Shown here: in pieces, positions 25,749 to 64,000 of the stretch | Numbering within the stretch: the stretch's first letter is position 1 | Layout: each line of letters opens with the position of its first letter | Assembly (NCBI GenBank): GCA_050951545.1 | Contig: JBMNJG010000010.1 | Location: forward strand, 1-64,000 | Direction: 5' to 3' | DNA from: Limnochordia bacterium | GTDB lineage: Bacteria; Bacillota; Limnochordia; DTU080 | Length of the DNA: 64,000 nt | Translations under genes and position numbers: made by a program | The notes under the pieces: model-generated | The model's input: only the letters and a program-made list of their open reading frames with translations | The model's database searches: none | What the model was told of the DNA's origin: nothing

Positions 25749-28016
25749 GTGCCGTCTCTATCTGAGCTGCGTGGGCGCATTCCATCTGCACACCCTCGCC
25801 TTTTCGTACGACCCGAGAGCTTGAACGACCTGCGTGAGAAACGCAAGCGATCTGCAATGGCCCAGTTGACCTGGCAAAACATCCGTGGTCAAGCGATGGG
25901 CGCTCTTCATTCAGTGATGCCCGCTGAACCACCCAACGCCAGGCCTGGTGGCGTAGGGGACATCACCGCCTGGCGAGAAGGCATCGCCATCGCGGATGAT
26001 GTCCTAAAAAGACTTCATTCCCTCGGTTTCACCTATCTGATGACAGAAGAAGAAACCTATGGACAAGCAGGAAAAAAGCTTCTGTTGCATGTGGCGGCTT
26101 GGGATCCCTACGGGACAAGCGGTCGAGCCCTCAATGATGAGATCTCCATGCGCCTGCTCTACGGCATGAGTCGAGCCTATGACTGGTTGTACCCGGTGCT
26201 GACAGAGGAAGAGCGCAACGTCGTCCGGCAGAGCATGCGTGAACGTGGCAATGACGTCTACCTGACGATGCGGCGCTCCAATTTCGAGGATCATCTACTC
26301 AATAACCATCTTGTCCGGTCCATGGGCTTTCTTGGTGAAGCCGCTATCGCCTTTTTGGGTGAGTTCCCCGAGGCGGAGATTTGGTTTGACTACATCGTTT
26401 CACTTTTTGTATTGAGATACCCGGCCTTTGGCGGCGATGAGGGTGGTTGGTCGCAGGGGGTCAGCTACTGGCAGCACTACATTTCCTGGGTCCTGGAGTT
26501 CCTGGATGCCTTTAAGATCGCTACCGAAGTTGACCTTTACCAGAAACCATTCTTCCGTAACACTGGTTACTTCAAGCTGTATGCGCATCCACCGAAGAGC
26601 AAGTTCGGCGCCTTCGGAGATCACTGCGACAGCCCACCAGGCCAGGTAGCGGCACAGGTCGTCAGCTGGCTGGCCACAGCTTTCAGTGACCCTGCACTTC
26701 AGTGGTATGCATCGGAGATCTCAGGGATGGGGCGGATACCACTCCTGCCAACGAACAGTTTCATTGGCTATATCAAAGCGTTTGAGACCCCTGATGCGCT
26801 GATTGCGCCAGCATTGCCGGACGACCTCCCGCAGTCCCGGCTTTTTAGTGATATCGGCTGGGCGCTGATGAACGTGGAAATGCGTGACTGGAACAACAAC
26901 GTCCATGTCAAGTTCAAGAGTAGCCCCTACGGCTCACATAGCCACAACCACGCAGACCAAAACAGTTTCATTATCGAAGCCTACGGCTCGCCCCTGGCCA
27001 TCTCGTCGGGCTACTATCCCTGGTATGGGAGTCCACACCACAAAACGTGGACCTGGGAAAGCAGGTCTAAGAATACGATCCTGGTCGACGGCCAGGGTCA
27101 GGGCGTCCAGAGTATCGAGGCCAAGGGCGACATCGTGGCTGCAAGCTTCGGATCGCAGTTCGATTACGTGCTCGGCGATGCCACACCCAGCTATCAGGGA
27201 CGCCTGCAGCGTTTCTTGCGCCACCTGTGGTTTGTGAAGCCAAACCTGATTGTCATCTACGACCAGCTAGAGTCGGGTGGAACGGATACCACCTACGACT
27301 GGCTCCTCCATACCCTTGACGAAATGGTGGTGGAATCGGAGCACAATCGCGTATGCGTGCCAGCCAAGACAGCTGAGATGTGGGTATCGTTTGTGACGCC
27401 TGAGCAGCTCTCCTTTGATCTGACAGACCAGTTCACGGTGCCTCCGGAAGAGCGAGATGCGCACAAACCAAACCAGTGGCATCTCACTGCCCGAGCGAAC
27501 TCTCAGACGGGTGAGGGCAGGTTTCTGACTGTGCTGGTGCCCCGCCCGATTGCTGAGGCAAAAGAGGCGCCACCTGTTGTGCGTGCCCTGCCAGCAACCA
27601 ACGGACATGGCGTCGCTGTAGATCTCAAGAACCGTTCTTTCACGATGGCTTTCCGCGACGATGCGACAGCGCCACTGGCGTTAGAGGGATTTGTGGCCGA
27701 AGCGACGGCGCTGGCCACCTGGAAGGAAGGTGCACAGGAGGGCTTGATGGTCATCGCGGGGCAGCGAGTTGAGCAAGACGGAAAGCTCCGGCTGTCTGCG
27801 GACCAGCCTGTAGACCTTGGAGCAACTTGGCAGTGTGTCGGTGAGACCGCAAGTCTCATGCTGCAAATCGCGGCGGAAACCAGTGCCACGATAGAACTCG
27901 CCTTAGCCTGCCAGCCGGAGACCGTGATGGTCAACGATCGTCCAATTGACACGTGGACGTATGAGGCAGGGATCGTGCGAGTCGAGATCCAAGAGTCAGC
28001 TAACTCGCAGCTCTAG
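25749..28016 (+). CDS. DUF4962/heparinase II/III-like polysaccharide lyase (oligoalginate-lyase-like)
   Basis: IPSAHPRLF, GGDEGGWSQGVSYW, FKSSPYGSHSHNHADQNSF, SGYYPWYGSPHH, NTILVDGQGQ. Confidence 0.85.
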   Translation: MPSLSELRGRIPSAHPRLFVRPESLNDLREKRKRSAMAQLTWQNIRGQAMGALHSVMPAEPPNARPGGVGDITAWREGIAIADDVLKRLHSLGFTYLMTEEETYGQAGKKLLLHVAAWDPYGTSGRALNDEISMRLLYGMSRAYDWLYPVLTEEERNVVRQSMRERGNDVYLTMRRSNFEDHLLNNHLVRSMGFLGEAAIAFLGEFPEAEIWFDYIVSLFVLRYPAFGGDEGGWSQGVSYWQHYISWVLEFLDAFKIATEVDLYQKPFFRNTGYFKLYAHPPKSKFGAFGDHCDSPPGQVAAQVVSWLATAFSDPALQWYASEISGMGRIPLLPTNSFIGYIKAFETPDALIAPALPDDLPQSRLFSDIGWALMNVEMRDWNNNVHVKFKSSPYGSHSHNHADQNSFIIEAYGSPLAISSGYYPWYGSPHHKTWTWESRSKNTILVDGQGQGVQSIEAKGDIVAASFGSQFDYVLGDATPSYQGRLQRFLRHLWFVKPNLIVIYDQLESGGTDTTYDWLLHTLDEMVVESEHNRVCVPAKTAEMWVSFVTPEQLSFDLTDQFTVPPEERDAHKPNQWHLTARANSQTGEGRFLTVLVPRPIAEAKEAPPVVRALPATNGHGVAVDLKNRSFTMAFRDDATAPLALEGFVAEATALATWKEGAQEGLMVIAGQRVEQDGKLRLSADQPVDLGATWQCVGETASLMLQIAAETSATIELALACQPETVMVNDRPIDTWTYEAGIVRVEIQESANSQL

Positions 28017-28276
28017 TCTGCCTCTTCGAGTCGAGTGCGTACCTTTTTCGCTATCGGCAGCAGATGCTTGCGGACAACGTCGTTGCGCACGCCCAGCTCC
28101 CGACCGACATCTGCTTGTGAGAGCCCTTGGATGTAGAGCATGGCCACCTCACGTTCCGGGTGCCTCCAATCGAAGTCGTTCGTTGCCAGGGCAAACTCCA
28201 GAACTCGGTGCAGTCGGTGAACCCTTCCCTCCCATACGTCGATCGCTGTGATCTGGAGACTGGGAGTAAAGAGCCG
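28013..28276 (-). pseudogene. Remnant of a sigma-70-family factor (region 4 HTH)
   Basis: The open frame, absent from the ORF track, reads ..HPEREVAMLYIQGLSQADVGRELGVRNDVVRKHLLPIAKKVRTRLEEAD*. It has an in-frame TAG at 28277-79 and no intact 5' part. Confidence 0.5.
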
Positions 28277-28576
28277 CTACCCACTCACCGTGTGTATGAC
28301 GTGAGGGCACAGCCCAGCTAAGTCTGGTTGAGCCAGCCGTTGCCCGCAAGCTACAGCCTATGGCGTACTCCCGCAAGCCACGGCGGGCTGAGGAGAGCGC
28401 GTCAAGCAAGCGCTCAGCTTGTCACAAACACCCAAACCCCTTAGGGCCAGATGTGCTGTGTTGCCACGTTTCGCCATGACATGCCGATTCGCCTGGCCTT
28501 GAACCCCACTGGAGGATTCACCCCTATGCCGGGATCCCCTTGAACCCCCGACGGCGACATCAGAGAGGCCACCACC

Positions 28577-30065
28577 GGGACTACACACGGAACCGCGGTG
28601 ATCCGCCTACGTTCGCTTGGATTGGTGGTAAGAACCTAGCGATGCGGTCTTCGCGAAGCCCTTTTTGCTCATTTTGACCGCCCGAAGGGCTCTTTTCCCC
28701 GCCTAAGGGCACACTTTCCCGCCTTGATTCCGCTTCTGGAGCCTCCGGGCGGTACATAACCGAACAGTGTCGCTCGCCTTTTTCCACTCAGCCGATTTGG
28801 GGTCAGCTCCCCAGTGCGCGATCACGGCGGGCTCACTCGGGTCCCTCTGCGGACCGACCCTTCGGTGTTGCCCCGGTCGGTGCATTTCGAAAAAGGTGGA
28901 CAGATGCAATGGACGCGCTCGCGAAACAGGCCCTGCAGTCAGACAACAGCCGGCTTGGTATGTGAGGCCAGGCCAAGAATCCGACCGCGATGGCAAAAGA
29001 GCCGCCTCATTAACCCCCGGGCCCAATGTACGTGGTAAAAGTGCAGCGATGCGGCCTTCGCGGAGCCCTTTTTGCTCATTTTGACCGCCCGAAGGGCTCA
29101 TTTCCCCGCCAAAGAGCACGCTTTCCCGCCTTGATTCCGCTTCTGGGGCTACCGGGCAGCACATAACCGAACGGTGGTGACTGCCTTTTTCCCACTCAGC
29201 CGATTTGGGGTCAGCTCCCCAGTGCGCGATCACGGCGGGCTCACTCAGGTCCCTCTGCGGACCGACCCTTCGGTGTTGCCCCGGTCGGTGCATTTCGAAA
29301 AAGGTGGACAGATGCAATGGACGCGCTCGCGAAACAGGCTCGGTGGTCGGACAACAGCCGGCTTGGTATGTGAGGCCAGGCTAAGGATGCGGCCGCGATG
29401 GCAAGAGAGCCGCCTCATTAGCCTCCGGGGCCAATGTACGTGGTAAAAGTGCAGCGATGCGGCCTTCGCGAAGCCCTTTTGGCTCATTTTGACCGCCCGA
29501 AGGGCCTATTTCCCCGCCTAAGGGCACGCTTTCCCGCCTTGATTTCGCTTCTGGAGCCTCCGGGCGGTACATAACCGAACAGTGTCGCTCGCCTTTTTCC
29601 ACTCAGCCGATGGGGTCAGCTCCCCAGTGCGCGATCACAGCGGGCTCGCTCGGGTCCCTCTGCGGACCGACCCTTCGCTGCTTGCCCCGGTCGGTGCATT
29701 TCGAAAGAAGGTGGACGAGATGCAATGGACGCGCTCGCGAAACAGGCCCTGCAGTCAGACACCACCCGGATTGGTACGTGAGTCGGGGCCAAGAATCCGA
29801 CCGCCATGGCAAAAGAGCCGCCTCATTAACCCCCGGGCCCAATGTACGTGGTAAAAGTGCAGCGATGCGGCCTTCGCGAAGCCCTTTTTGCTCATTTTGA
29901 CCGCCCGAAGGGCTCATTTCCCCGCCCAAGAGCACGCTTTCCCGCCTCTGGTGGCCCTTCTGGAGCTACTGGGCAGTACATAACCCGACGCCAGTGGTGA
30001 TAGCCTTTTTCCACTCAGCCGATGATCCGAGGGCGAAATGCTGTCGACTCCCAGTGGCCACCGGG
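28577..30065 (+). repeat. Tandem array A of ~408-bp units: leader, 3 full units and a partial fourth
   Basis: Anchor AGCGATGCGG at 28638, 29045, 29453 and 29861 (periods 407, 408, 408). Clear similarity ends at ~30023 and is degenerate to ~30065. Confidence 0.95.
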
Positions 30066-30106
30066 TCTTAGTCGGCAATGCGCGCGTTTTCAGCGAAAGC
30101 TGTGGA

Positions 30107-30131
30107 AGGATTCTGGCCTCACGTACCGAAG
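30107..30131 (+). promoter_or_regulatory. SigH-like promoter for the HTH-nuclease gene
   Basis: AGGA (30107-10), 17 nt, GAAG (30128-31); the same geometry recurs upstream of many genes in this window. Confidence 0.5.
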
Positions 30132-30179
30132 ATCGCATCGAGACAATCGAACACACGGTCGTTTTGTGAGGTGAGGCCC

Positions 30180-31241
30180 TTGTACTCTCTCCATGTAGAT
30201 GAGGTGAACGTGCCGCTCTCACTGCTACTGACTCGCGAGTTAAAGGCCAGCGAGAAGATCGTTTGGATGGCCTTAACGATGGATGATCAGCTGGAGGAAA
30301 GTTTCCTTTTCTCGCCCAGCCGCCTGGGGCGGCGCACGGGTATGTCCCGGCCTACCGTTCGCAGGGCGACAGCCAAGTTAACCACCGAGGGCTGGTTTGC
30401 TCCACCAGCTAGGCGGGGTCCTAGCCAGACCGCGGCACAGAAGCCATCCCCGGATAGGGTCTCCGTGCCTGTGGAGCTAGTCATGGCTACTGAAATCCAT
30501 GCACAGGCCAAATTGGTTTATGCCCTACTGCTGTCCAAACCTACGGACCCACCTCGCAAAAGGCAGTTCACATACGCTGAGTTAGCCGGCCGGATGAGTC
30601 TGAGCCCCCAGACCATCAAACACGCAGCTCGTCAGTTGGCCAAGCATGGTTGGCTGGAGATGGAGCAGGCGCACAAGCGGGCACCGATTCGCTTCACTCT
30701 CCACAACCCGGTTGATAAGCGAAATGTAAAAGAAATACTAGACGTGCAGGATGAGCTCCACCGCGCTACGCACCTCGGAGAGGCTCTCATGCAGGCTATC
30801 TTCTTGGCGCTTGTCGATTGCCTTGACTTCGACGACGGAATGCGCCCAGGTTTCATGAGGAACCCAGCAACTGGCAAGCGTCTGGAGGTCGATCTCTTCT
30901 ATTACTTGCACAATACGGCCATGGAGTTCAATGGGGCGCAACACTACCGCGTCACGGAGCGGAATTCGGCTGAGCAGGTCCATAAGCAGCAATGCCGTGA
31001 CCAGACCAAACAGCAGATCTGCGCTAAGAAGAAGATCAAGCTGATCGTGATTCAGGCTCACGAGCTGTCCTGCAATATCATCAAGCGCAAGATTCACAGG
31101 CGGCTGCCATTCCGGCGCGGTCAGGACTTCAACCGGAAGCTCATCAACTATCTCGAGTGTAGATGCGGTGAGTACCAGCAAAGAATAGATGAACGTGGCT
31201 GGGGAACCGCCAGTGAATCTGAGAGAAAGCAAGACGAGTAG
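30180..31241 (+). CDS. Tandem winged-HTH plus C-terminal Vsr/DUF559-like (PD-(D/E)XK-type) putative endonuclease, 353 aa
   Basis: Two repeats of VP..L.....L/I....K.V...L followed by a helix-turn-helix (LGRRTGMSRPTVRRATAKL..EGW; LAGRMSLSPQTIKHAARQL..HGW). C-terminal RPGFMRNPATGKRLEVDLFY..AMEFNGAQHY..QQCRDQTKQQIC..KIKLIVI. Start placed at TTG 30180 after GAGGTG. Confidence 0.75.
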   Translation: MYSLHVDEVNVPLSLLLTRELKASEKIVWMALTMDDQLEESFLFSPSRLGRRTGMSRPTVRRATAKLTTEGWFAPPARRGPSQTAAQKPSPDRVSVPVELVMATEIHAQAKLVYALLLSKPTDPPRKRQFTYAELAGRMSLSPQTIKHAARQLAKHGWLEMEQAHKRAPIRFTLHNPVDKRNVKEILDVQDELHRATHLGEALMQAIFLALVDCLDFDDGMRPGFMRNPATGKRLEVDLFYYLHNTAMEFNGAQHYRVTERNSAEQVHKQQCRDQTKQQICAKKKIKLIVIQAHELSCNIIKRKIHRRLPFRRGQDFNRKLINYLECRCGEYQQRIDERGWGTASESERKQDE

Positions 31242-31701
31242 TCACCTTGGGTTACCTTGTCCGTTTCGTCAGGGCTTACATCAGCCGTGCAGCCAATGGT
31301 ATTCCGCGTCCACCCGCTGCCGGCGATCAGAACACCCCTACACTGATTTTCACTCAGACGGCACCGTGACATAACCAGCAGTTCGTCTGGAAACGCTCAC
31401 ATGACAGACTCAGGGTTCTGGGCGCTGTTGCATTCGTAGCGAGCAAATGACGGGTGCCGTTCTGTTACGAGTCCGACGCGTACTCAGCCTACAGAACCTC
31501 GTCCACCCATACTCCCCGTGGCCCCCTTAGGCGGCAACTCTCAGGTAGCTGGCAACAAGGACCGTTAGGGGCGAAGCCTTTATCCTTGCTGCGCTGCCAG
31601 CCACCTGAGACAATGGAGCGTGTCCAGTTCACCGCCTTTCTCATGTGCAGCTGCCACCACGACGTTCGGTGATGGCCTTCATTAGGTTCATGTCCGGAGA
31701 C

Positions 31702-58436: not shown

Positions 58437-59138
58437 TTGGAGTCAAGGTACCATGTGATGATAGTAGAAGATGATGTGAAAATAGCTGGCATCTTGCACG
58501 GTGAGCTACAGCGGTACGGCCTTGCCACCACCGTAGCGAGCGATTACGCTCACCTGAAAGAGGAAGTCCTAGCAGTGAAACCCGACCTGATACTCCTCGA
58601 TGTCAATCTGCCGTTTTACGATGGCTACTACTGGTGTCGGCAGGTGCGTACTGTGTCGAAGGTACCTATCATATTCATATCAGCGCGCTCAGGAGAAGTC
58701 GATCAAGTGCGGGGTTTGGAGGCCGGTGGGGATGACTACATCCCCAAACCGTTCAGTCTGGAGCTAGTGATGGCCAAGGTACAAAGCACCTTGCGTCGAG
58801 TGTATGGTGAGTACGCAGGTGACGCAACGAGCGACGTGATACAGGTCGGTGACCTTCAGCTAAATCGGCTCACCAACTGCGTATCAACCCGTGTTGGTTG
58901 TCGTGAGGTGTCACCAAAGGAGTTTCGACTGCTATGGGCTCTGGCTCAGCGACCGGGCGAAATAGTCAGCCGCGAGGAACTGCTCGAAGCCCTCTGGGAT
59001 GAGGTGGATTTTGTCGATGACAACACGCTGACCGTCAATGTCAGTCGGGTCCGTCGTCAGCTTGAGGAAGTGGGCCTTGCAGGGGTGATAGAAACCAAAC
59101 GGGGACAGGGGTACATGCTCCGCCTGAAAGGAAGCTGA
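58437..59138 (+). CDS. OmpR-family response regulator, BceR/GraR-like
   Basis: IVEDD, LLDVNLPFYDGYYWCRQVR, PIIFISAR, GGDDYIPKPF, FVDDNTLTVNV.R.R, IETKRGQGY. TTG start inferred from the RBS. Confidence 0.9.
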   Translation: MESRYHVMIVEDDVKIAGILHGELQRYGLATTVASDYAHLKEEVLAVKPDLILLDVNLPFYDGYYWCRQVRTVSKVPIIFISARSGEVDQVRGLEAGGDDYIPKPFSLELVMAKVQSTLRRVYGEYAGDATSDVIQVGDLQLNRLTNCVSTRVGCREVSPKEFRLLWALAQRPGEIVSREELLEALWDEVDFVDDNTLTVNVSRVRRQLEEVGLAGVIETKRGQGYMLRLKGS

Positions 59139-59145
59139 TGCTACC

Positions 59146-60249
59146 GTGTCTTGGCGCACCTATCTTCGCGATCATCTGCCCTTTGTCGCTCTGTTCGTTG
59201 GCTTTGCCCTCGTGACGGTGGCCGTGGTCGAATTGGACTTGCGCCTATCGCAGGGCACACTGCAGTGGGTTAACGCCTTATATATCCTGCTCTTCGCCCT
59301 GGTAGCCTTGAGCGGGGCCCTGCTTACTGATTACTACAGGCAGAAGCCCTTTTTGGTTCAGTTGGGCCAAGTGACTGGCAGTGAGCCCCTGGATCAGTTG
59401 GGCCTACTGGCACCAGCGCATACAGCCGCGCAAGCTCTTGTGAGCGCCGCCTGGGAGCGTCTTTACGGCCGCCTAAGGGCAGAGCTGGTGCAGGAGAGGA
59501 CTCGTAGTCGCCACCAGATCGATATCCTAAGCCAGTGGGCACACCACATGAAAACACCAGTCTCCGTGATAGACCTGGAGCTACAGAAAGCCCATCAGGA
59601 GAGCTACCCACCTGAGGTGCAGGCGGTGATGGATAGCATAAGAGAGGAAAACCAGCGGCTCAACAACTCGTTACAGGCACTACTGAACATGGTGCGGTTG
59701 GAGGACTTCGCCACCGATTTGCGCATAGAGCGAGTTGATCTAGATCAGCTAGTGCGCTCGTTGGTCAACGCGCATAAGCGCGAGTTCATCACCCGTCGAG
59801 TCTATCCGCAAGTGGAAGTAGGTCAGGGAGCAGGCACTGTCGTAGAGACTGATGCCAAGTGGCTTCGATTTGTGTTACAGCAGGTGCTGAGTAACGCCCT
59901 CAAGTACGCTGCGCCAGCGCCAGCTACCGGGCAAATCTGCTTTCGCCTCTACCAAGAACGAGGGGAGACCCTCTTGAGCGTGGAAGACAACGGACCTGGT
60001 ATACCCCCTGAGGATTTGCCGCGTGTGTGTCAGCCCTTCTTCACTGGGCAAAACGGGCGCCTTCATCCGGCTGCCACAGGCATGGGACTCTACTTTGCCG
60101 CCGAGGTTTGCAGACGCCTGGACCACCGACTGGTAGTAGAGTCGCTTGTGGGCCAAGGGACCACGGTACGCATTGGTTTTCCCGCTGGGCGCACTATTTT
60201 TTCCGATTTAGAAGAGCAGGCCCGTGAGATGCCGCTACCTCCAACATGA
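59146..60249 (+). CDS. Intramembrane-sensing histidine kinase, BceS/GraS-like
   Basis: Two N-terminal TM helices with a short loop; WAHHMKTPVS, TDAKWL.FVL.Q..SNALKY, DNGPGIP..DLPRV..PFFTG.NG, TGMGLY. Confidence 0.9.
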   Translation: MSWRTYLRDHLPFVALFVGFALVTVAVVELDLRLSQGTLQWVNALYILLFALVALSGALLTDYYRQKPFLVQLGQVTGSEPLDQLGLLAPAHTAAQALVSAAWERLYGRLRAELVQERTRSRHQIDILSQWAHHMKTPVSVIDLELQKAHQESYPPEVQAVMDSIREENQRLNNSLQALLNMVRLEDFATDLRIERVDLDQLVRSLVNAHKREFITRRVYPQVEVGQGAGTVVETDAKWLRFVLQQVLSNALKYAAPAPATGQICFRLYQERGETLLSVEDNGPGIPPEDLPRVCQPFFTGQNGRLHPAATGMGLYFAAEVCRRLDHRLVVESLVGQGTTVRIGFPAGRTIFSDLEEQAREMPLPPT

Positions 60250-60272
60250 CAGAAATGAAAGGTTGCTGCAAG
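60247..60272 (+). promoter_or_regulatory. Candidate BceR-type operator
   Basis: TGACA-GAAA-TGAAAG (60247-61), one mismatch from the TNACA-N4-TGTAA consensus, plus a second half-site TGCAAG (60267-72), directly after the kinase. Confidence 0.45.
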
Positions 60273-61515
60273 TCAGATCGATGGGGCCACGCAAAAAAAT
60301 GCGGTAATCTCCCTGCGTTCGCTGGGGTTGGTGGTAAGAACCTAGCGATGCGGTCTTCGCGAAGCCCTTTTTGCTCATTTTGATCGCCCGAAGGGCTCTT
60401 TTCCCCGCCTAAGGGCACACTTTCCCGCCTTGATTTCGCTTCTGGGGTTACCGGGCAGCACATAACCGAACGGTAGTGACTGCCTTTTCCCACTCAGACG
60501 ATTGGGTCAGCTCTCCAGTGCGCGATCACAGCGGGCTCGCTCGGATCCCTCTGCGGACCAACCCTTCGGTGTTAACCCGGTCGGTGTGTTTCGAAAAGGG
60601 TGGACGGACACCATGCACCATGCACACGCTCGCGAGACTGGCTCGGTAGTCGGACAGATGCACCCGGATTGGTACGTGAGTCGGGGCCAAGAATCCGACC
60701 ATGATGGCAAAAGAGCCGCCCCATTAACCCCCGGGCCCAATGTACGTGGTAAAAGTGCAGCGATGCGGCCTTCGCGAAGCCCTTTTTGCTCATTTTGATC
60801 GCCCGAAGGGCTCATTTCCCCGCCCAAGAGCACGCTTTCTCGTCTCAGCGGCCCTTCTGGAGCTACTGGGCAGCACATAACCGAACGGTAGTGACTGCCT
60901 TTTCCCACTCAGACGATTGGATCCGCTCTCCAGTGCGCGATCACAGCGGGCTCGCTCGGATCCCTCTGCGGACCAACCCTTCGGTGTTGCCCCGGTCGGT
61001 GCATTTCGAAAAAGGTGGGCAGACACCATGCACACGCTCGCGAGACTGGCTCGGTAGTCGGACAGATGCACCCGGATTGGTACGTGAGTCGGGGCCAAGA
61101 ATCCGACCGCGATGGCAAAAGAGCCGCCCCATTAACCCCCGGAGCCAGTGTGCGTGGTAAAAGTGCAGCGATGCGGTCTTCGCGAAGCCCTTTTTGCTCA
61201 TTTTGATCGCCCGAAGGGCTCATTTCCCCGCCCAAGAGCACGCTTTCTCGTCTCAGCGGCCCTTCTGGAGCTACCGGGCAGCACATAACCGAACGGTAGT
61301 GACTGCCTTTTCCCACTCAGACGATTGGATCCGCTCTCCAGTGCGCGATCACAGCGGGCTCGCTCGGATCCCTCTGCGGACCAACCCTTCGGTGTTGCCC
61401 CGTGTTTTTGATAGCCTCAAGTAGGGCCAAATGATCATCGAGAATGAGGCCACCAAAATTATCCAATTCCCTGTATGCTTGAGTTGCGAAACAGAGCATA
61501 CGGGGGGAAACTGGA

Positions 61516-63033
61516 GTGGTTAAGGTGGCCAAGGTTAAGGATATCATTCATCTCTACGAACGGGAAGACTGGTCCAAGCGAAAGATTGCGAAGCATTTCG
61601 GGATTTCGAGGGGGACAGTGGATCGCGTGGTGGCCAACCCCGACAGATATCTGCCAAAGTCGGAGCCTGTCGATCGCACGTCGTCAAAGATGACCACCCA
61701 GATCATGGCCTTCATCGATGGCATCATCGAGAGCGACAAGAAGATCAACCGCAAGCAGCGCCATACGAGCAGGCGGATATGGGAAAGGGTCATTGAGGAG
61801 TTTGGCGAGGACAGCTCGCCGGCAGAGTCGACGGTACGGCGGTATGTGGGTAAGGTTAAGAAGCGCAATCCCGAGCCGTTCATCCCCCTGGGCTTCGTTG
61901 CGGGGCAGAGCATGCAAGGGGATTTTGGAGAGGTCACGGTAAAGATCGACGGTGAGAAGTGCAGAGTCTATTTCTGGGCACAACGCTTGAGTTACAGCAG
62001 AGCCACATGCGTCGGCGTATACCCCCGAGCGACTCAGGAGTGCTTTCTGGACGGCCAGCAACGGGCGCTGCAGTTCTTCGATGGCGTCCCGGTGATGCAT
62101 ATCATCGACAATCTGAAGGCCGCTATCAAGAGTGGCTTAGGCAGAAACGCCGTTGAGACCGAGCGCTACGATGCCTTTCAGACTCACTACGGCTTTCGTA
62201 CGGAGGCCTGCAACGGAGCTTCAGGCAACGAAAAAGGCCAGGTAGAAAGCCTTGTGGGGTTCGTCCAGAGAAACTGGTTCTCCGGATTGCCTGAGTTCAA
62301 TGCCTGGGAAGAGCTGATCGCGTATGTGGACACGCAAAACGTGCGTTACCTAAAGCGTCACCACCCGGAGGAGCCAGGGCGTACGGTGGGCGAGCTCCTC
62401 GAAGAGGAACGCCGCGTCTTACGAGCGCTTCCACCACCTTTCCGGTGCTGCAAAGAGGGCCCGGTAACGGCTTCGAAGACCAGCCTCGTGACATATGACA
62501 CAAACCAGTATTCTGTTCCGACGGAGAAACGACTGGAAGCGCTGACTCTTAGGGCCTATCCTTGGCATGTTGAAGTCCTCTGTGACCACCAGGTGATCGC
62601 GACGCACGTCAGGTCATACGTAAAGCGGACCGTCTCCTTTGAACTATCGCATTACCTGACGGCATTACTGCGCAAACCCCGTGCTCTGCCGTTTGCGAAG
62701 CCATTCCAGCGGGCTCGCCTCGAGCCCATCATGCGGCAGCTCTATGATCGTCTGCTTGAGGTGGACCCCGATCGCGCTAATCGTCGCTGGATAGAGATTG
62801 CCATCTGGGGTCTGGAGTTGGACCCAGCCAGGTTCTACAGAACTATTGAGCAGGCACTTAAGCTGGACCGATTTGATATGGAAAGCCTTCGTTACCTCCA
62901 CACCCAGTTGGATTTGGAGCCGGGTCAGCCCAAGTCAAAACCGGCGAAGGTTGAGGATCGCCTGAGCTTCTCAATCGTACACGAATCGATCAATCGCTTC
63001 TCAGAGCTTCTTTCGGGGGGCATGGGCCTGTGA
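61516..63033 (+). CDS. istA: IS21 transposase IstA
   Basis: N-terminal HTH; RKQRHT..RIW, QGDFG, LSYSR, FFDGVP...IDNLK, GNEKGQVE..V, NQYSVP. Confidence 0.92.
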   Translation: MVKVAKVKDIIHLYEREDWSKRKIAKHFGISRGTVDRVVANPDRYLPKSEPVDRTSSKMTTQIMAFIDGIIESDKKINRKQRHTSRRIWERVIEEFGEDSSPAESTVRRYVGKVKKRNPEPFIPLGFVAGQSMQGDFGEVTVKIDGEKCRVYFWAQRLSYSRATCVGVYPRATQECFLDGQQRALQFFDGVPVMHIIDNLKAAIKSGLGRNAVETERYDAFQTHYGFRTEACNGASGNEKGQVESLVGFVQRNWFSGLPEFNAWEELIAYVDTQNVRYLKRHHPEEPGRTVGELLEEERRVLRALPPPFRCCKEGPVTASKTSLVTYDTNQYSVPTEKRLEALTLRAYPWHVEVLCDHQVIATHVRSYVKRTVSFELSHYLTALLRKPRALPFAKPFQRARLEPIMRQLYDRLLEVDPDRANRRWIEIAIWGLELDPARFYRTIEQALKLDRFDMESLRYLHTQLDLEPGQPKSKPAKVEDRLSFSIVHESINRFSELLSGGMGL

Positions 63034-63795
63034 GTACAGAGGTGATACCTTCTTTACCTCAAGACGCTTGGACTACCCGGTATTGCCCGTTCCTATGAGA
63101 AACTAGCCGCTCAGGCCCGGCGCGACCGTTGTGGATACGAGGAGTTCCTGCAGAGCCTTTTGCAGGAGGAGTTGCAGAATCGCAAAGTGTGCCGTGTTCG
63201 GACGCTCCTCAAATCGGCACGATTCCCTCTGCTGAAGCAGCTAGACACGTTTGAGTTCGACGAAATCCCTTCTCTCAACCGACAAGTGGTGAAGGAGCTC
63301 GCCAGAAATCACTACATCCCCGCTAAGGAAAACGTCCTGATCTGTGGCAACAGCGGCACGGGAAAGACACATGTCGCCACCGCGTTAGGCATATCAGCCT
63401 GCGAAGCTGGGTACCGGGTCCGTTTCACCACAACGCAAGCGCTGGCAAACGACCTGCTTGCAGCCAGGGAGGAGCATTCACTCAACCGGTACGAAAAGCA
63501 GTGGTCGAGGATCGATTTGGCGATCATCGACGAGCTGGGGTACTTGCCATTCGATGCGACTACGGCTCAACTCCTATTCCAGTTCATCTCCGCCCGCTAC
63601 GAACTCGGGAGCATCATGATCACTACCAATCTCGAGTTTGCTCAGTGGACGGAAGTCTTCGGTGATGAGCGCATGACGATTGCCCTGCTCGACAGGCTGA
63701 CCCATCGTGCACACATCCTACTCATGAACGGAGAAAGCTATCGGTTCAAGAACAACCGGCGCGCCGGCCAAGGAGGTGATGCGCCGAGCGCGTAA
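63030..63795 (+). CDS. istB: IS21 helper ATPase IstB, with an apparent +1 frameshift near 63048-63054
   Basis: GNSGTGKTH Walker A, IIDELGY, ITTN, ALLDRLTH. The IstB-like N-terminus YLKTLGLPGI..YEEFL lies in frame upstream of 63160, but the GTG at 63030 is one base out of frame. Confidence 0.85.
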
Positions 63796-64000
63796 CCCCG
63801 ACAGGGTGGCTCTATTCTGGTGATCAAATGGCCTCATTCTCGATTGACAAACACACCCCGGTCGGTGCATTTCGAAAAAGGTGGGCAGACACCATGGACA
63901 CGCTCGCGAAACAGGCCCTGCAGTCAGGCACCAGCCGGATTGGTACGTGAGTCGGGGCCAAGAATCCGACCGCCATGGCAAAAGAGCCGCCTCATTAGCC

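Follow-up and report, generated by a model that had tools for sequence, protein, structure and literature searches.

A multicopy cassette that couples a 408-bp tandem array to a gene for a putative winged-helix, Vsr-like nuclease in a Limnochordia bacterium

Most known free-standing homing endonucleases come from phages and organelles, where each has one target. At IscB and IS110 loci, a conserved non-coding unit lies directly upstream of the gene and on its strand. REP/REPIN sequences and their RAYTs are an example of a single nuclease-type gene with its own short cis-sequence family in one chromosome; RAYTs are HUH enzymes, are usually single-copy, and are flanked by hundreds of dispersed hairpins. 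At iteron origins, short iterons of about 17–22 bp, closely spaced in tandem, adjoin an AT-rich unwinding element. In FokI, to which the logic of the protein described here can be likened, a sequence reader is fused to a cutter. For the EDxHD homing endonuclease I-Bth0305I, the excerpt of the paper cited here gives the set Asp196/Asn208/His213/Asp222 (PMC3239194). SegB of phage T6, a free-standing homing endonuclease, drives a 718-bp segment beside its own gene to amplify in tandem, in a process that depends on recombination (PMC13096335).

The window, 64,000 nucleotides from the start of contig JBMNJG010000010.1, carries a copy of a cassette of roughly 2.8 kb (28577–31390; Table 1). Its neighbours are a gene for a heparinase II/III-like protein and genes for sugar-binding ABC proteins, which bears out the carbohydrate setting reported by the first-pass annotation. 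The leader of ~60 bp and the approximately 3.4 units of 407–408 bp described there were also recovered. The leader, 62 bp long and conserved, precedes both arrays of the window, and TRF gave the first array a period of 408, 3.4 copies and 89% matches. The left end of the cassette is sharp, both in the leader alignment and in the copy-number profile, which steps from 1 to 16 at about 28577. The leader can be aligned at 13 loci of the genome. Its first ~21 bp constitute a terminal motif, degenerate in the window copy, that occurs 15 times genome-wide at up to four mismatches. Its last ~20 bp are similar to the 3' end of the unit. In two copies, the terminal motif is seen again in direct orientation after the full tail.

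The terminal partial unit corresponds to unit positions 1–160, and this phase is identical in nearly all arrays. In the unit alignment, the best-conserved part is a core of ~43 bp at the junctions, the first of which contains a 10-bp palindrome (28649–28658). Each unit junction bears a core, so an array of n.4 units has n+1 cores. Unit homology ends at about 30023–30034. Sequence does follow the array, as had been observed, and the supposed degenerating tail is better seen as a segment conserved in all 15 copies. The right ends vary across copies, lying 88–600 bp beyond the stop codon, and the 3' tail of the window copy is shorter than the ~225-bp full form. A likeness of this tail to the unit, seen by eye in two short motifs, was not above chance (score 18, shuffle mean 18.2). 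A sigma-70 promoter and terminator scan returned no more sites (one promoter-like, two terminator-like) than expected from shuffled sequence, and no tRNA or tmRNA was found in the window.

Table 1. Coordinates of cassette features in the window
Feature	Position	Strand	Basis and detail
Leader (left end of cassette)	28577..28637	+	Copy-number profile and leader alignment
Tandem array	28638..30023	+	TRF; full units start at 28638, 29045 and 29453; partial unit 29861-30023
Junction core, ~43 bp, four copies	28625..28668, 29032-29075, 29440-29483, 29848-29891	+	Conservation across units
Gene-proximal non-coding segment, 186 bp	30024..30209	+	Alignment of 15 copies; kept in 15/15
CDS, 343 aa (most likely start)	30210..31241	+	Pfam HTH, AF2 model, VIA-align, PHROGs, copy comparison
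3' tail of cassette	31242..31390	+	Copy number back to 1 at ~31390
Second cassette copy	60282..61402	+	TRF, leader alignment; leader 60282-60343; interrupted inside a unit
IS21-family insertion (not cassette DNA)	61403..63855	+	istA-like 61516-63033, istB 63160-63795
Rest of interrupted unit	63856..64000	+	Unit matches

The second array does share the leader, as first reported. It is split by an IS21-family element (Pfam IstB_IS21, E 4.5e-66, plus a Mu-transposase C-terminal domain). TRF assigned period 408 and 2.6 copies to 60344–61402. The array stops at contig position 64047, 47 bp past the window, with no gene behind it. An empty-site paralog in the same contig parts from the flank of this second copy exactly where the leader begins.

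The locus is not a lone one. A unit search of the genome gave 83 matches at 24 array loci, and 15 of these end in the gene, as in the window. The 15 gene copies found by tblastn are 95–99% identical, each lying 55–85 bp past the end of an array, and 13 have an intact reading frame. The copies of the CDS are under purifying selection, with 43 synonymous and 26 nonsynonymous substitutions over 236 and 793 sites, respectively. Gene-bearing cassettes hold at least 2.1 units where measurable (one, at a contig start, shows 1.7). The leader is absent from 4 of the 15, which begin inside a unit. The nine gene-less loci have 0.3–2.6 units. There are few solo units in the genome. Unlike REP/REPIN–RAYT systems, the gene is multicopy and its cis-sequences remain in arrays beside it. 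An assembly artefact is an unlikely source of the array, because the arrays differ in unit number and sequence and lie inside long contigs with unique flanks.

We compared divergence along the cassette. The CDS and ~36 bp before it are 98–100% identical between copies, 30024–30173 is about 79–93% identical, and non-orthologous units are ~85% identical. Such values favor a history in which the 408-bp repeat is an older dispersed satellite or MITE-like sequence, later invaded by a homing endonuclease gene that cuts near unit position 160 and spreads from array to array by homologous repair. The gene also sits at one constant phase of the unit. We nevertheless regard this history as unlikely. No intact gene-free array is present, since all nine gene-less loci are fragments or deletion derivatives, either truncated or with remnants of the gene or the gene-proximal segment. 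The DNA after the gene has no likeness to the rest of the unit, and the leader and gene-proximal segment travel with the gene. Nearest-neighbor units between arrays are about 91–97% identical, near the pairwise synonymous divergence of the gene, estimated at ~5%. As unit divergence is this close, the arrays and the gene may well have spread together. A large age gap between gene and array was considered and rejected: 18% of synonymous sites are variable, as against roughly 24–33% of flank columns (the flank counted by eye), and the like-with-like comparison leaves about 1.5–2-fold.

The flanks of the 15 gene-bearing copies are unrelated, and the left flanks have no sequence in common. No common target sequence was found among them, no inverted repeats join the cassette ends, and no target-site duplication was evident in the flanks of the copies compared. 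For these reasons homing in the strict sense does not fit the cassette. Insertion sequences and transposons differ too, as the cassette has no known transposase or recombinase domain, no terminal inverted repeats and no target-site duplication.

Two paralogous gene families in the genome have arrays of their own, with periods of 94–104 bp (family 2) and about 255–262 bp (family 3). In both, the array is downstream of the gene, whereas in the window family (family 1) it is upstream. Family 2 proteins are 46–50% identical to those of the window family, and family 2 carries a single hairpin-repeat copy at the end opposite the array. Together, the three families amount to about 27 gene copies on one 3.6-Mb chromosome, and 23 of the 28 non-CRISPR arrays of period ≥90 in the genome adjoin this gene family. 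The junction core is the sole stretch that scores above shuffles against the family-3 unit (31 versus 19.4 ± 2.5). The family-2 unit did not score above shuffles against the family-1 unit (20–21 versus 17.8 ± 2.4). The terminal motif is common to both family-3 elements and is not found in family 2.

What is the array? A coding repeat was rejected: unit lengths of 392–426 nt are not multiples of three, and the units have no consistent codon phase and no shared frame. The first-pass annotation had also proposed an array of structured ncRNAs that partner the nuclease, analogous to omegaRNA arrays. Such RNAs, unit-length or processed, would act as its guides or regulators, much as omega-RNAs or bridge RNAs do. 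In favor of this, the unit is long, conserved and non-coding and lies directly upstream on the gene's strand, the gene–array link is strong, and one homolog subfamily in another genome (G009) has a common upstream block of about 350–570 bp with internal repeats. The RNA searches were all negative. Over the whole window nothing in Rfam reached its gathering threshold, and over 28500–31450 there was no match at E ≤ 1. Fold z-scores of single units were −0.10 and +0.21. Across 50 aligned units (~85% identity), RNAalifold on both strands and an all-pairs count found no helix in which compensatory pairs outnumbered broken ones; in each candidate, the broken cells equaled or exceeded the compensatory cells. 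Structured RNA was rejected on these grounds. Furthermore, the array is downstream of the gene in families 2 and 3, and the protein has two DNA-reading winged helices instead of a known guide-RNA fold. We therefore consider RNA partners very improbable. The lack of unique spacers noted initially holds, with every part of the unit homologous from unit to unit. This and the lack of conserved RNA secondary structure set the array apart from CRISPR, omega-RNA and bridge-RNA arrays. The array is probably the cassette's own binding or cutting site, multiplied.

The protein agrees with the initial description of two HTH regions and a Vsr-like nuclease. In Pfam, the 387-aa ORF matched HTH families only, at about residues 76–107 and 139–205; at E ≤ 1 the scan gave 21 families, all of HTH or winged-helix types, and no NUMOD family. 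Neither Pfam nor NCBIfam reported a DDE, HUH or serine/tyrosine recombinase domain, consistent with the first reading. The AF2 model has a pLDDT of 87 (a model from the single sequence, at 43, was unusable). It shows two winged helices at residues ~1–165 and a Vsr/EDxHD-like nuclease at ~184–301. In VIA-align, residues 184–301 aligned with Vsr (1cw0_A; Z 8.2, rmsd 3.2, 106 aligned), I-Bth0305I (3r3p_B; Z 7.8, rmsd 2.8, 93/98 aligned) and 3hrl_A (Z 7.2); residues 1–165 aligned with the Pi initiator on iteron DNA (2nra_C; Z 7.6, 157 aligned) and residues 82–168 with the plasmid initiator 4pta_D (Z 9.0), and the DnaD N-domain 2vn2_A was also matched (Z 7.8), Z values of 7–8 being moderate and in a range that may reflect merely a common arrangement. 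A Foldseek search of the PDB with the whole model returned winged-helix proteins only, at E > 0.001, and sequence searches of the PDB, whether by family profile or by the last 135 residues, reached no nuclease, Vsr and I-Bth0305I included. Among the PHROGs matches were phrog_9084, a homing endonuclease (2.2e-9), and phrog_7140, an intron-encoded nuclease (7.2e-6). BFVD matches at E ≤ 0.001 numbered 67; homing endonucleases of phages, a VSR endonuclease and DUF559 proteins were among them.

In a set of 20 sequences, residues D228, E239, N241, H245, D264 and K267 either do not vary or are conserved to at least 90%, and the leading Glu column of the composite motif is E or Q across them. Counted from the first Asp, the spacing is 13, 17, 36, versus 12, 17, 26 for I-Bth0305I in the cited excerpt (PMC3239194), a match by order and spacing and not by superposition. 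The cassette protein is like the EDxHD homing endonucleases (I-Bth0305I, PDB 3R3P; phage Hef type) in its C-terminal Vsr-like fold, in an N-terminal helix-turn-helix DNA-binding region, here in two copies, in its sequence-level matches to phage homing-endonuclease PHROGs, and in selfish, multicopy behavior; the Asp/Asn/His/Asp set, of similar order and spacing, may correspond as well. Unlike these enzymes, it has a Rep/DnaD-type double winged helix and not NUMOD at the N-terminus. Its gene lies outside introns and inteins and is not tied to a single allelic target; there are about 20 chromosomal copies at unrelated sites, and the cassette has its own leader, long-period array and terminal motif. 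As modeled, the protein resembles a DNA-binding, homing-endonuclease-like nuclease.

The N-terminal half bears on another early suggestion, an iteron-like origin or partition locus. Part of this stands, as the double winged helix does resemble the one by which iteron-binding initiators read direct repeats; it aligns with iteron-bound Pi, MDR plasmid initiators and the DnaD N-domain. Tandem winged helices and a gene beside direct repeats are shared with the iteron initiators (Pi of R6K, RepA/RepE, MDR plasmid initiators), and PHROGs also matched replication-initiation O-like and DnaD-like families. Cassettes of this kind could be relics of integrated plasmid-like elements, each an iteron-type replication or partition module of a Rep-like protein and its repeats. 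The replicon is a poor fit, because the period is 408 bp and not about 20 bp, the array has no AT-rich stretch, and about 20 copies lie in unrelated contexts of the chromosome. GC is 0.575–0.64 across the array, and the cassette minimum (0.515 in a 200-bp window) falls inside the gene. The cassette has a single gene, and the nuclease domain fused to the winged helices has a conserved active site under selection. We give this origin very little weight.

One gene does follow the array, as first described; its start was revised. The ORF as first called is 30078–31241 (387 aa). The true start is most likely GTG 30210, which yields 343 aa, judging from the sequence: a GAGG Shine–Dalgarno at 30201–30204 lies 5 nt upstream, all relatives align from 30210, and copy-to-copy identity jumps to 99–100% from about 30174. 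Ahead of the start codon, where the first-pass annotation saw a SigH-like promoter, the conserved feature is a LexA-box-like motif (30148–30161) of the same type as the operators of the host's own lexA gene. In family 1 it is present in 15 of 15 copies with one mismatch from the host lexA operator type, and this mismatch falls on a normally conserved position. Family 3 has a perfect GAAC-N4-GTTC in 4 of 4 copies, and family 2 has a one-mismatch box in 7 of 8.

These boxes, the purifying selection on the copies, and the cover of the gene body by contigs from RNA libraries of three studies would also suit host factors that have been domesticated, such as regulators or nucleases of repair or defense induced in the SOS response, with the arrays as neutral by-products of a recombination-prone region. 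Contigs of the metatranscriptome runs X3, X5 and X6, which come from three studies, cover only 30299–31252, and such cover of a gene is no proof of transcription. A further run, X1, which is probably DNA, covers array and gene. The run contigs are assembled and were taken at 90% likeness, and missing cover on a variable, repetitive array is uninformative. PADLOC gave no significant match to a defense family, its three weak rows being of HTH type (E 0.0008–0.007). About 27 paralogs in three families, together with decayed copies, form the pattern of a proliferating element and do not look like a host gene. No gene homolog was found in the two same-genus genomes searched. Host factors are a highly doubtful explanation of these data. 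The two same-genus genomes have 70–77% DNA identity to the window and align only over 26500–27782 and from about 33020, and they yielded no readable empty site.

The protein family is large, with 361 clusters at 50% identity (E ≤ 1e-30). In the 10 clusters examined, the sole annotations are 'helix-turn-helix domain-containing protein' and 'hypothetical'. Long direct repeats lie beside the gene at 4–5 of 20 homolog loci (seven other genomes). On the chance adjacency raised by the first-pass annotation the answer is mixed: every gene-less array of the present genome is a fragment or a deletion derivative, yet 15–16 of the 20 homolog loci, in other genera, have no adjoining long repeat. For the protein family as a whole, then, the array must be dispensable. 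The 408-bp unit was absent from the searched genomes among 20 relatives, and the terminal motif had no match in the homolog loci of other genera (129,508 bases, 20 loci).

We see an even chance that this is an SOS-controlled selfish nuclease cassette, in which the array is an amplified cis-site module enlarged by break repair. The winged helices would dock as a dimer on the junction core. On DNA damage, the gene would be freed from LexA and expressed, and the nuclease would nick or cut near the core. Recombinational repair between neighboring cores could then expand, contract and shuffle the array; arrays would come to differ in unit number and contain mosaic units, yet keep one phase. Such breaks, if repaired off another copy or captured elsewhere, may place the cassette at new sites. 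Joining DNA is beyond a Vsr-type nuclease by itself, so host functions would be needed for any insertion at a new site. The selfish element proposed in the first-pass annotation holds in outline, with a multicopy cassette and a recurring gene–array link, while binding and cutting of the unit are what we infer.

The proposed likeness to SegB lies in breaks near the element's own gene and in recombination that leads to adjacent tandem repeats of several hundred bp (PMC13096335, in the part cited). In the same excerpt, SegB is a GIY-YIG phage enzyme, and the cassette sits in a bacterial chromosome; the amplified SegB unit takes in its gene together with a tRNA, and it is under selection by host defense and collapses once that pressure is gone (PMC13096335). 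Unlike it, the cassette arrays are old (units about 85% alike) and exclude the gene.

We also put forward, tentatively and as the more doubtful claim, that the cassettes are an unrecognized class of autonomous bacterial mobile element. The sole protein would join a Rep-like double winged helix to a Vsr-type nuclease and would recognize the terminal motif and the ~43-bp cores reiterated at one end. Movement to unrelated sites would proceed by nuclease and host repair with no transposase or recombinase, and the arrays, with three or more cores in each gene-bearing copy, would serve as a platform for landing or assembly and not be a by-product. Full-text literature searches found no account of such a cassette type.

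In this organism, a putative Vsr-type relative has reached about 27 copies, each of its three families with its own long-period array. If the nuclease makes the arrays, most long tandem repeats of the genome would be accounted for, and the endonuclease-driven 'genomic accordion' of phage T6 (2026) would have a natural and long-lived counterpart in the cassette. Enzyme engineers, too, may find use in a modular reader-plus-cutter whose recognition module is long and carried by an array. If the cassette moves itself, it would represent a type of mobile element without a transposase.

Tandem Repeats Finder identified two period-408 arrays in the window. The unit of ~408 bp is preceded in both by a common leader of ~62 bp, so that the second leader-bearing array reported in the first-pass annotation is borne out. 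A single ORF lies downstream of array 1. This cassette sits in what had been read as an unrelated carbohydrate region, and the neighbors agree: a heparinase II/III-like protein upstream and sugar-binding ABC proteins downstream on the opposite strand. The two window copies belong to family 1, the cassettes with a 408-bp array; families 2 and 3 are paralogous cassettes of the same genome. Array 2 is interrupted within a unit by an IS21-family element and has no gene downstream. Three IS21 insertions lie in or beside these cassettes in all, the other two adjoining a family-1 array fragment (contig C14 near 1047) and a family-2-like cassette (C9 near 55300). Judged by eye, a segment in the left flank of the first cassette matches an inverted stretch of C2 that lies downstream of a family-2-like gene. 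From this likeness it may be the remnant of another cassette.

Features of the window and related loci of the same genome (window positions unless a contig is named)
Feature	Position	Details
77-aa ORF between heparinase-like gene and cassette	28051-28284 (-)	no Pfam match at E <= 1e-5
Left flank of first cassette	28301-28400	~100 bp; two occurrences in genome
First cassette	~28577-31390	extent from copy-number profile
Array 1	28638-30023	period 408, 3.4 copies, 89% matches
ORF downstream of array 1	30078-31241	
LexA-like motif	30148-30161	~50 nt upstream of start
CDS, as taken here	30210-31241	GTG start, 343 aa
Response-regulator/histidine-kinase region	58901-60285	
Array 2	60344-61402	period 408, 2.6 copies
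IS21-family element	61403-63855	istA-like + istB; IstB_IS21, E 4.5e-66
Array 2, resumed	from 63856	stops 47 bp past window end
Degraded second copy of 58901-60285	C10:65677-66354	2-2.4 kb past window end; 78-91% identical
Solo leader + 160-bp unit piece	C6:159509-159833	with 65-residue nuclease-gene fragment
Long CRISPR array	C6:153894-159109	last repeat ~400 bp before solo leader locus
~600-bp module after family-1 genes	C4:114970, C3:131455, C5:129625, C12:189509	non-coding
~300-bp module after family-1 genes	C2:124131, C7:435172, C11:347140, C16:1910	non-coding
Long-period tandem repeats away from the gene family	C2:145828, C6:82375, C7:558103, C11:82585, C16:38327	142-611 bp

One unit used as query gave 83 matches in 24 loci of the 3.64-Mb, 16-contig assembly (the IS21-split array was entered once). 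A tblastn search with the ORF returned 15 copies at 95-99% identity, each beginning 55-85 bp past the end of an array, and ~12 further paralogs at 46-55% identity. This supports in outline the initial proposal that array and gene form one system. The other nine array loci are every one truncated, at a contig end, or a deletion derivative; one is without the equivalent of window 30117-31039, and two more retain short gene pieces only. Nearly all arrays consist of n full units followed by a terminal piece that corresponds to unit positions 1-160. Complete arrays begin with the leader, the final ~20 bp of which resembles the 3' end of the unit. Four of the 15 gene-bearing copies have no leader and start inside a unit. 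Where measurable, all 15 contain at least two full units, and the gene-less loci contain 0.3-2.6. Such a minimum is compatible both with arrays as a by-product of nuclease activity and with a need for several cores. A solo leader with pieces of unit and gene was also observed close to a long CRISPR array.

The left end of the cassette is sharp in all 13 leader-carrying loci. For the second copy there is an internal control: the 52 bp just left of its leader recurs, identical, 6 kb further along the contig before an ABC-transporter gene, and the start of the leader is the exact point at which the two diverge. The recurrence stands at the end of a second, degraded response-regulator/histidine-kinase region, a configuration suggestive of an empty-site paralog or a cassette-linked rearrangement. 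The right end is ragged. Repeated DNA stops 88, 122, 145, 182, or 225 bp past the stop codon, and in other copies it continues into two short multicopy modules of ~600 and ~300 bp. In subsets of the cassettes these modules, with 4-10 and ~10-20 genome copies, respectively, follow the usual 3' tail or take its place. No terminal inverted repeats were found at the cassette ends, and no target-site duplication or common target sequence was found across the flanks.

The array is non-coding. The 50 full units aligned show a mean identity of ~85%, and a coding repeat is ruled out by their lengths (392-426 nt), the absence of a consistent codon phase, and the lack of a frame common to the units. An array of structured ncRNAs partnering the nuclease, considered in the first-pass annotation, finds no support: Rfam gave no match on the array, the unit fold z-scores (-0.10 and +0.21) gave no sign of RNA structure, and covariation over the 50 units on either strand gave no helix in which compensatory cells outnumbered broken ones. 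The best-conserved stretch spans the unit junction and holds a 10-bp palindrome. This junction core of ~43 bp is reiterated n+1 times per array, the leader/first-unit junction included. The units are mosaic, and positional orthology between arrays is absent. Nearest-neighbor units from other arrays are typically 91-97% alike, which is close to the pairwise synonymous divergence of the gene, estimated at roughly 5%. Judging from this agreement, gene and array seem to have spread together, with the arrays reshuffled since.

We take the CDS to start at GTG 30210, because the alignment of all relatives begins near residue 45 of the long ORF, this codon has a GAGG 5 nt upstream, and identity between copies climbs to 99-100% from ~30174. 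The frame is intact in 13 of 15 copies and frameshifted in two. Among the 13, variable sites number 67 of 1032. Synonymous changes total 43 over ~236 sites and nonsynonymous ones 26 over ~793, which indicates that the gene copies are under purifying selection.

Pfam and NCBIfam detected only helix-turn-helix families, in two stretches. An AlphaFold2 model from a 20-sequence alignment (pLDDT 87, pTM 0.77) was compared with PDB representatives using VIA-align. Residues 184-301 match Vsr (1cw0_A, Z 8.2), the catalytic domain of I-Bth0305I (3r3p_B, Z 7.8, 93 of 98 residues, rmsd 2.8), and a DUF559-type protein (3hrl_A, Z 7.2); these Z values are moderate, yet the domain is spanned in full by three Vsr-fold proteins. 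The model therefore favors the first-pass reading of two HTH domains plus a Vsr/DUF559-like nuclease. Sequence profiles agree with the fold assignments: PHROGs "homing endonuclease" and "intron encoded nuclease" match residues 222-297, and "replication initiation O-like" and "DnaD-like" match the N-terminus. BFVD gave 67 matches at E <= 0.001, including phage homing endonucleases, a VSR endonuclease, and DUF559 proteins. Residues D228, E239, N241, H245, D264, and K267 are fully or almost fully conserved. In order and spacing they are similar to the catalytic residues reported for I-Bth0305I (PMC3239194). Searched with a profile, 1.84 billion representatives yielded 361 full-architecture proteins at E <= 1e-30; the ten clusters looked up, from Bacillota MAGs, carry only the names "helix-turn-helix domain-containing protein" or "hypothetical protein".

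An iteron-like origin bound by Rep-like winged helices had also been suggested. The N-terminal half of the model does match the Pi initiator on iteron DNA (2nra_C, Z 7.6, 157 residues), as well as an MDR plasmid initiator (4pta_D, Z 9.0) and the DnaD N-domain, but the likeness is confined to this DNA-binding half and nothing else resembles iteron initiators. The nuclease domain is probably one of the Vsr-like (EDxHD) homing endonucleases and would work like them. Unlike these, the cassette has no single cognate site, intron, or intein, and the protein has no NUMOD motifs. The cassette lacks all hallmarks of CRISPR or omega-type RNA arrays and of known transposons. No published account of such a cassette emerged from full-text literature searches.

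The link between gene and array is recurrent. Family 2 (7-8 copies, ~1.9 kb) has a 94-104-bp array downstream of the gene, and one copy of the array's hairpin repeat stands alone at the opposite end; family 3 (4-5 copies) has a 255-262-bp array downstream of the gene. Of the genome's non-CRISPR arrays with a period of 90 or more, 23 of 28 adjoin this gene family, and the link is not chance. Families 1 and 3 have two elements in common. One is the 43-nt junction core (score 31, against 19.4 +/- 2.5 for 200 shuffles with a maximum of 30). The other is the terminal motif, the first ~21 bp of the leader, which in both family-3 elements lies inverted at the end nearer the array; in each of these two families the array lies between this motif and the gene. 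Five long-period repeats lie away from the family. The protein is present in 13 of 40 relatives searched, often in multiple copies (13 matches in relative G009, 17 in G004), and was not found in two same-genus genomes; the 408-bp unit was not found in 20 relatives searched. The expectation that homologs adjoin long repeats holds in part: direct repeats of 149-370 bp lie <1.8 kb from the gene at 4-5 of 20 homolog loci in seven genomes, but none at the other 15-16. A G009 subfamily has a common conserved upstream block of ~350-570 bp, duplicated in some copies.

Scans for sigma-70 promoters and terminators gave chance levels only. A LexA-like box is present upstream of the start in 15 of 15 family-1 copies, one mismatch from the CGAAC-N4-GTTCG-type boxes upstream of the genome's own lexA gene. 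A perfect GAAC-N4-GTTC occurs at that position in all four family-3 copies, and a one-mismatch box in 7 of 8 family-2 copies. Boxes across three families make it likely that the gene family in general is under SOS control; for family 1 this is plausible, but weaker.

We propose that the winged helices bind the palindromic core and that, upon DNA damage, the nuclease would nick or cut nearby. Recombinational repair between adjacent cores would then expand, contract, and shuffle the array. For this amplification step, phage T6 offers an experimental precedent: in a 2026 report, the homing endonuclease SegB breaks DNA near its own gene, and UvsX/UvsY-dependent recombination then makes tandem repeats of a 718-bp segment (PMC13096335). 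The cassette would spread through breaks that are repaired off other copies or captured elsewhere. Movement is the weakest step, because a Vsr-type nuclease has no ability to join DNA, the cassettes occupy unrelated sites, and each is ragged at one end. The genome carries a proliferating single-gene cassette with a reader-plus-cutter protein under selection.
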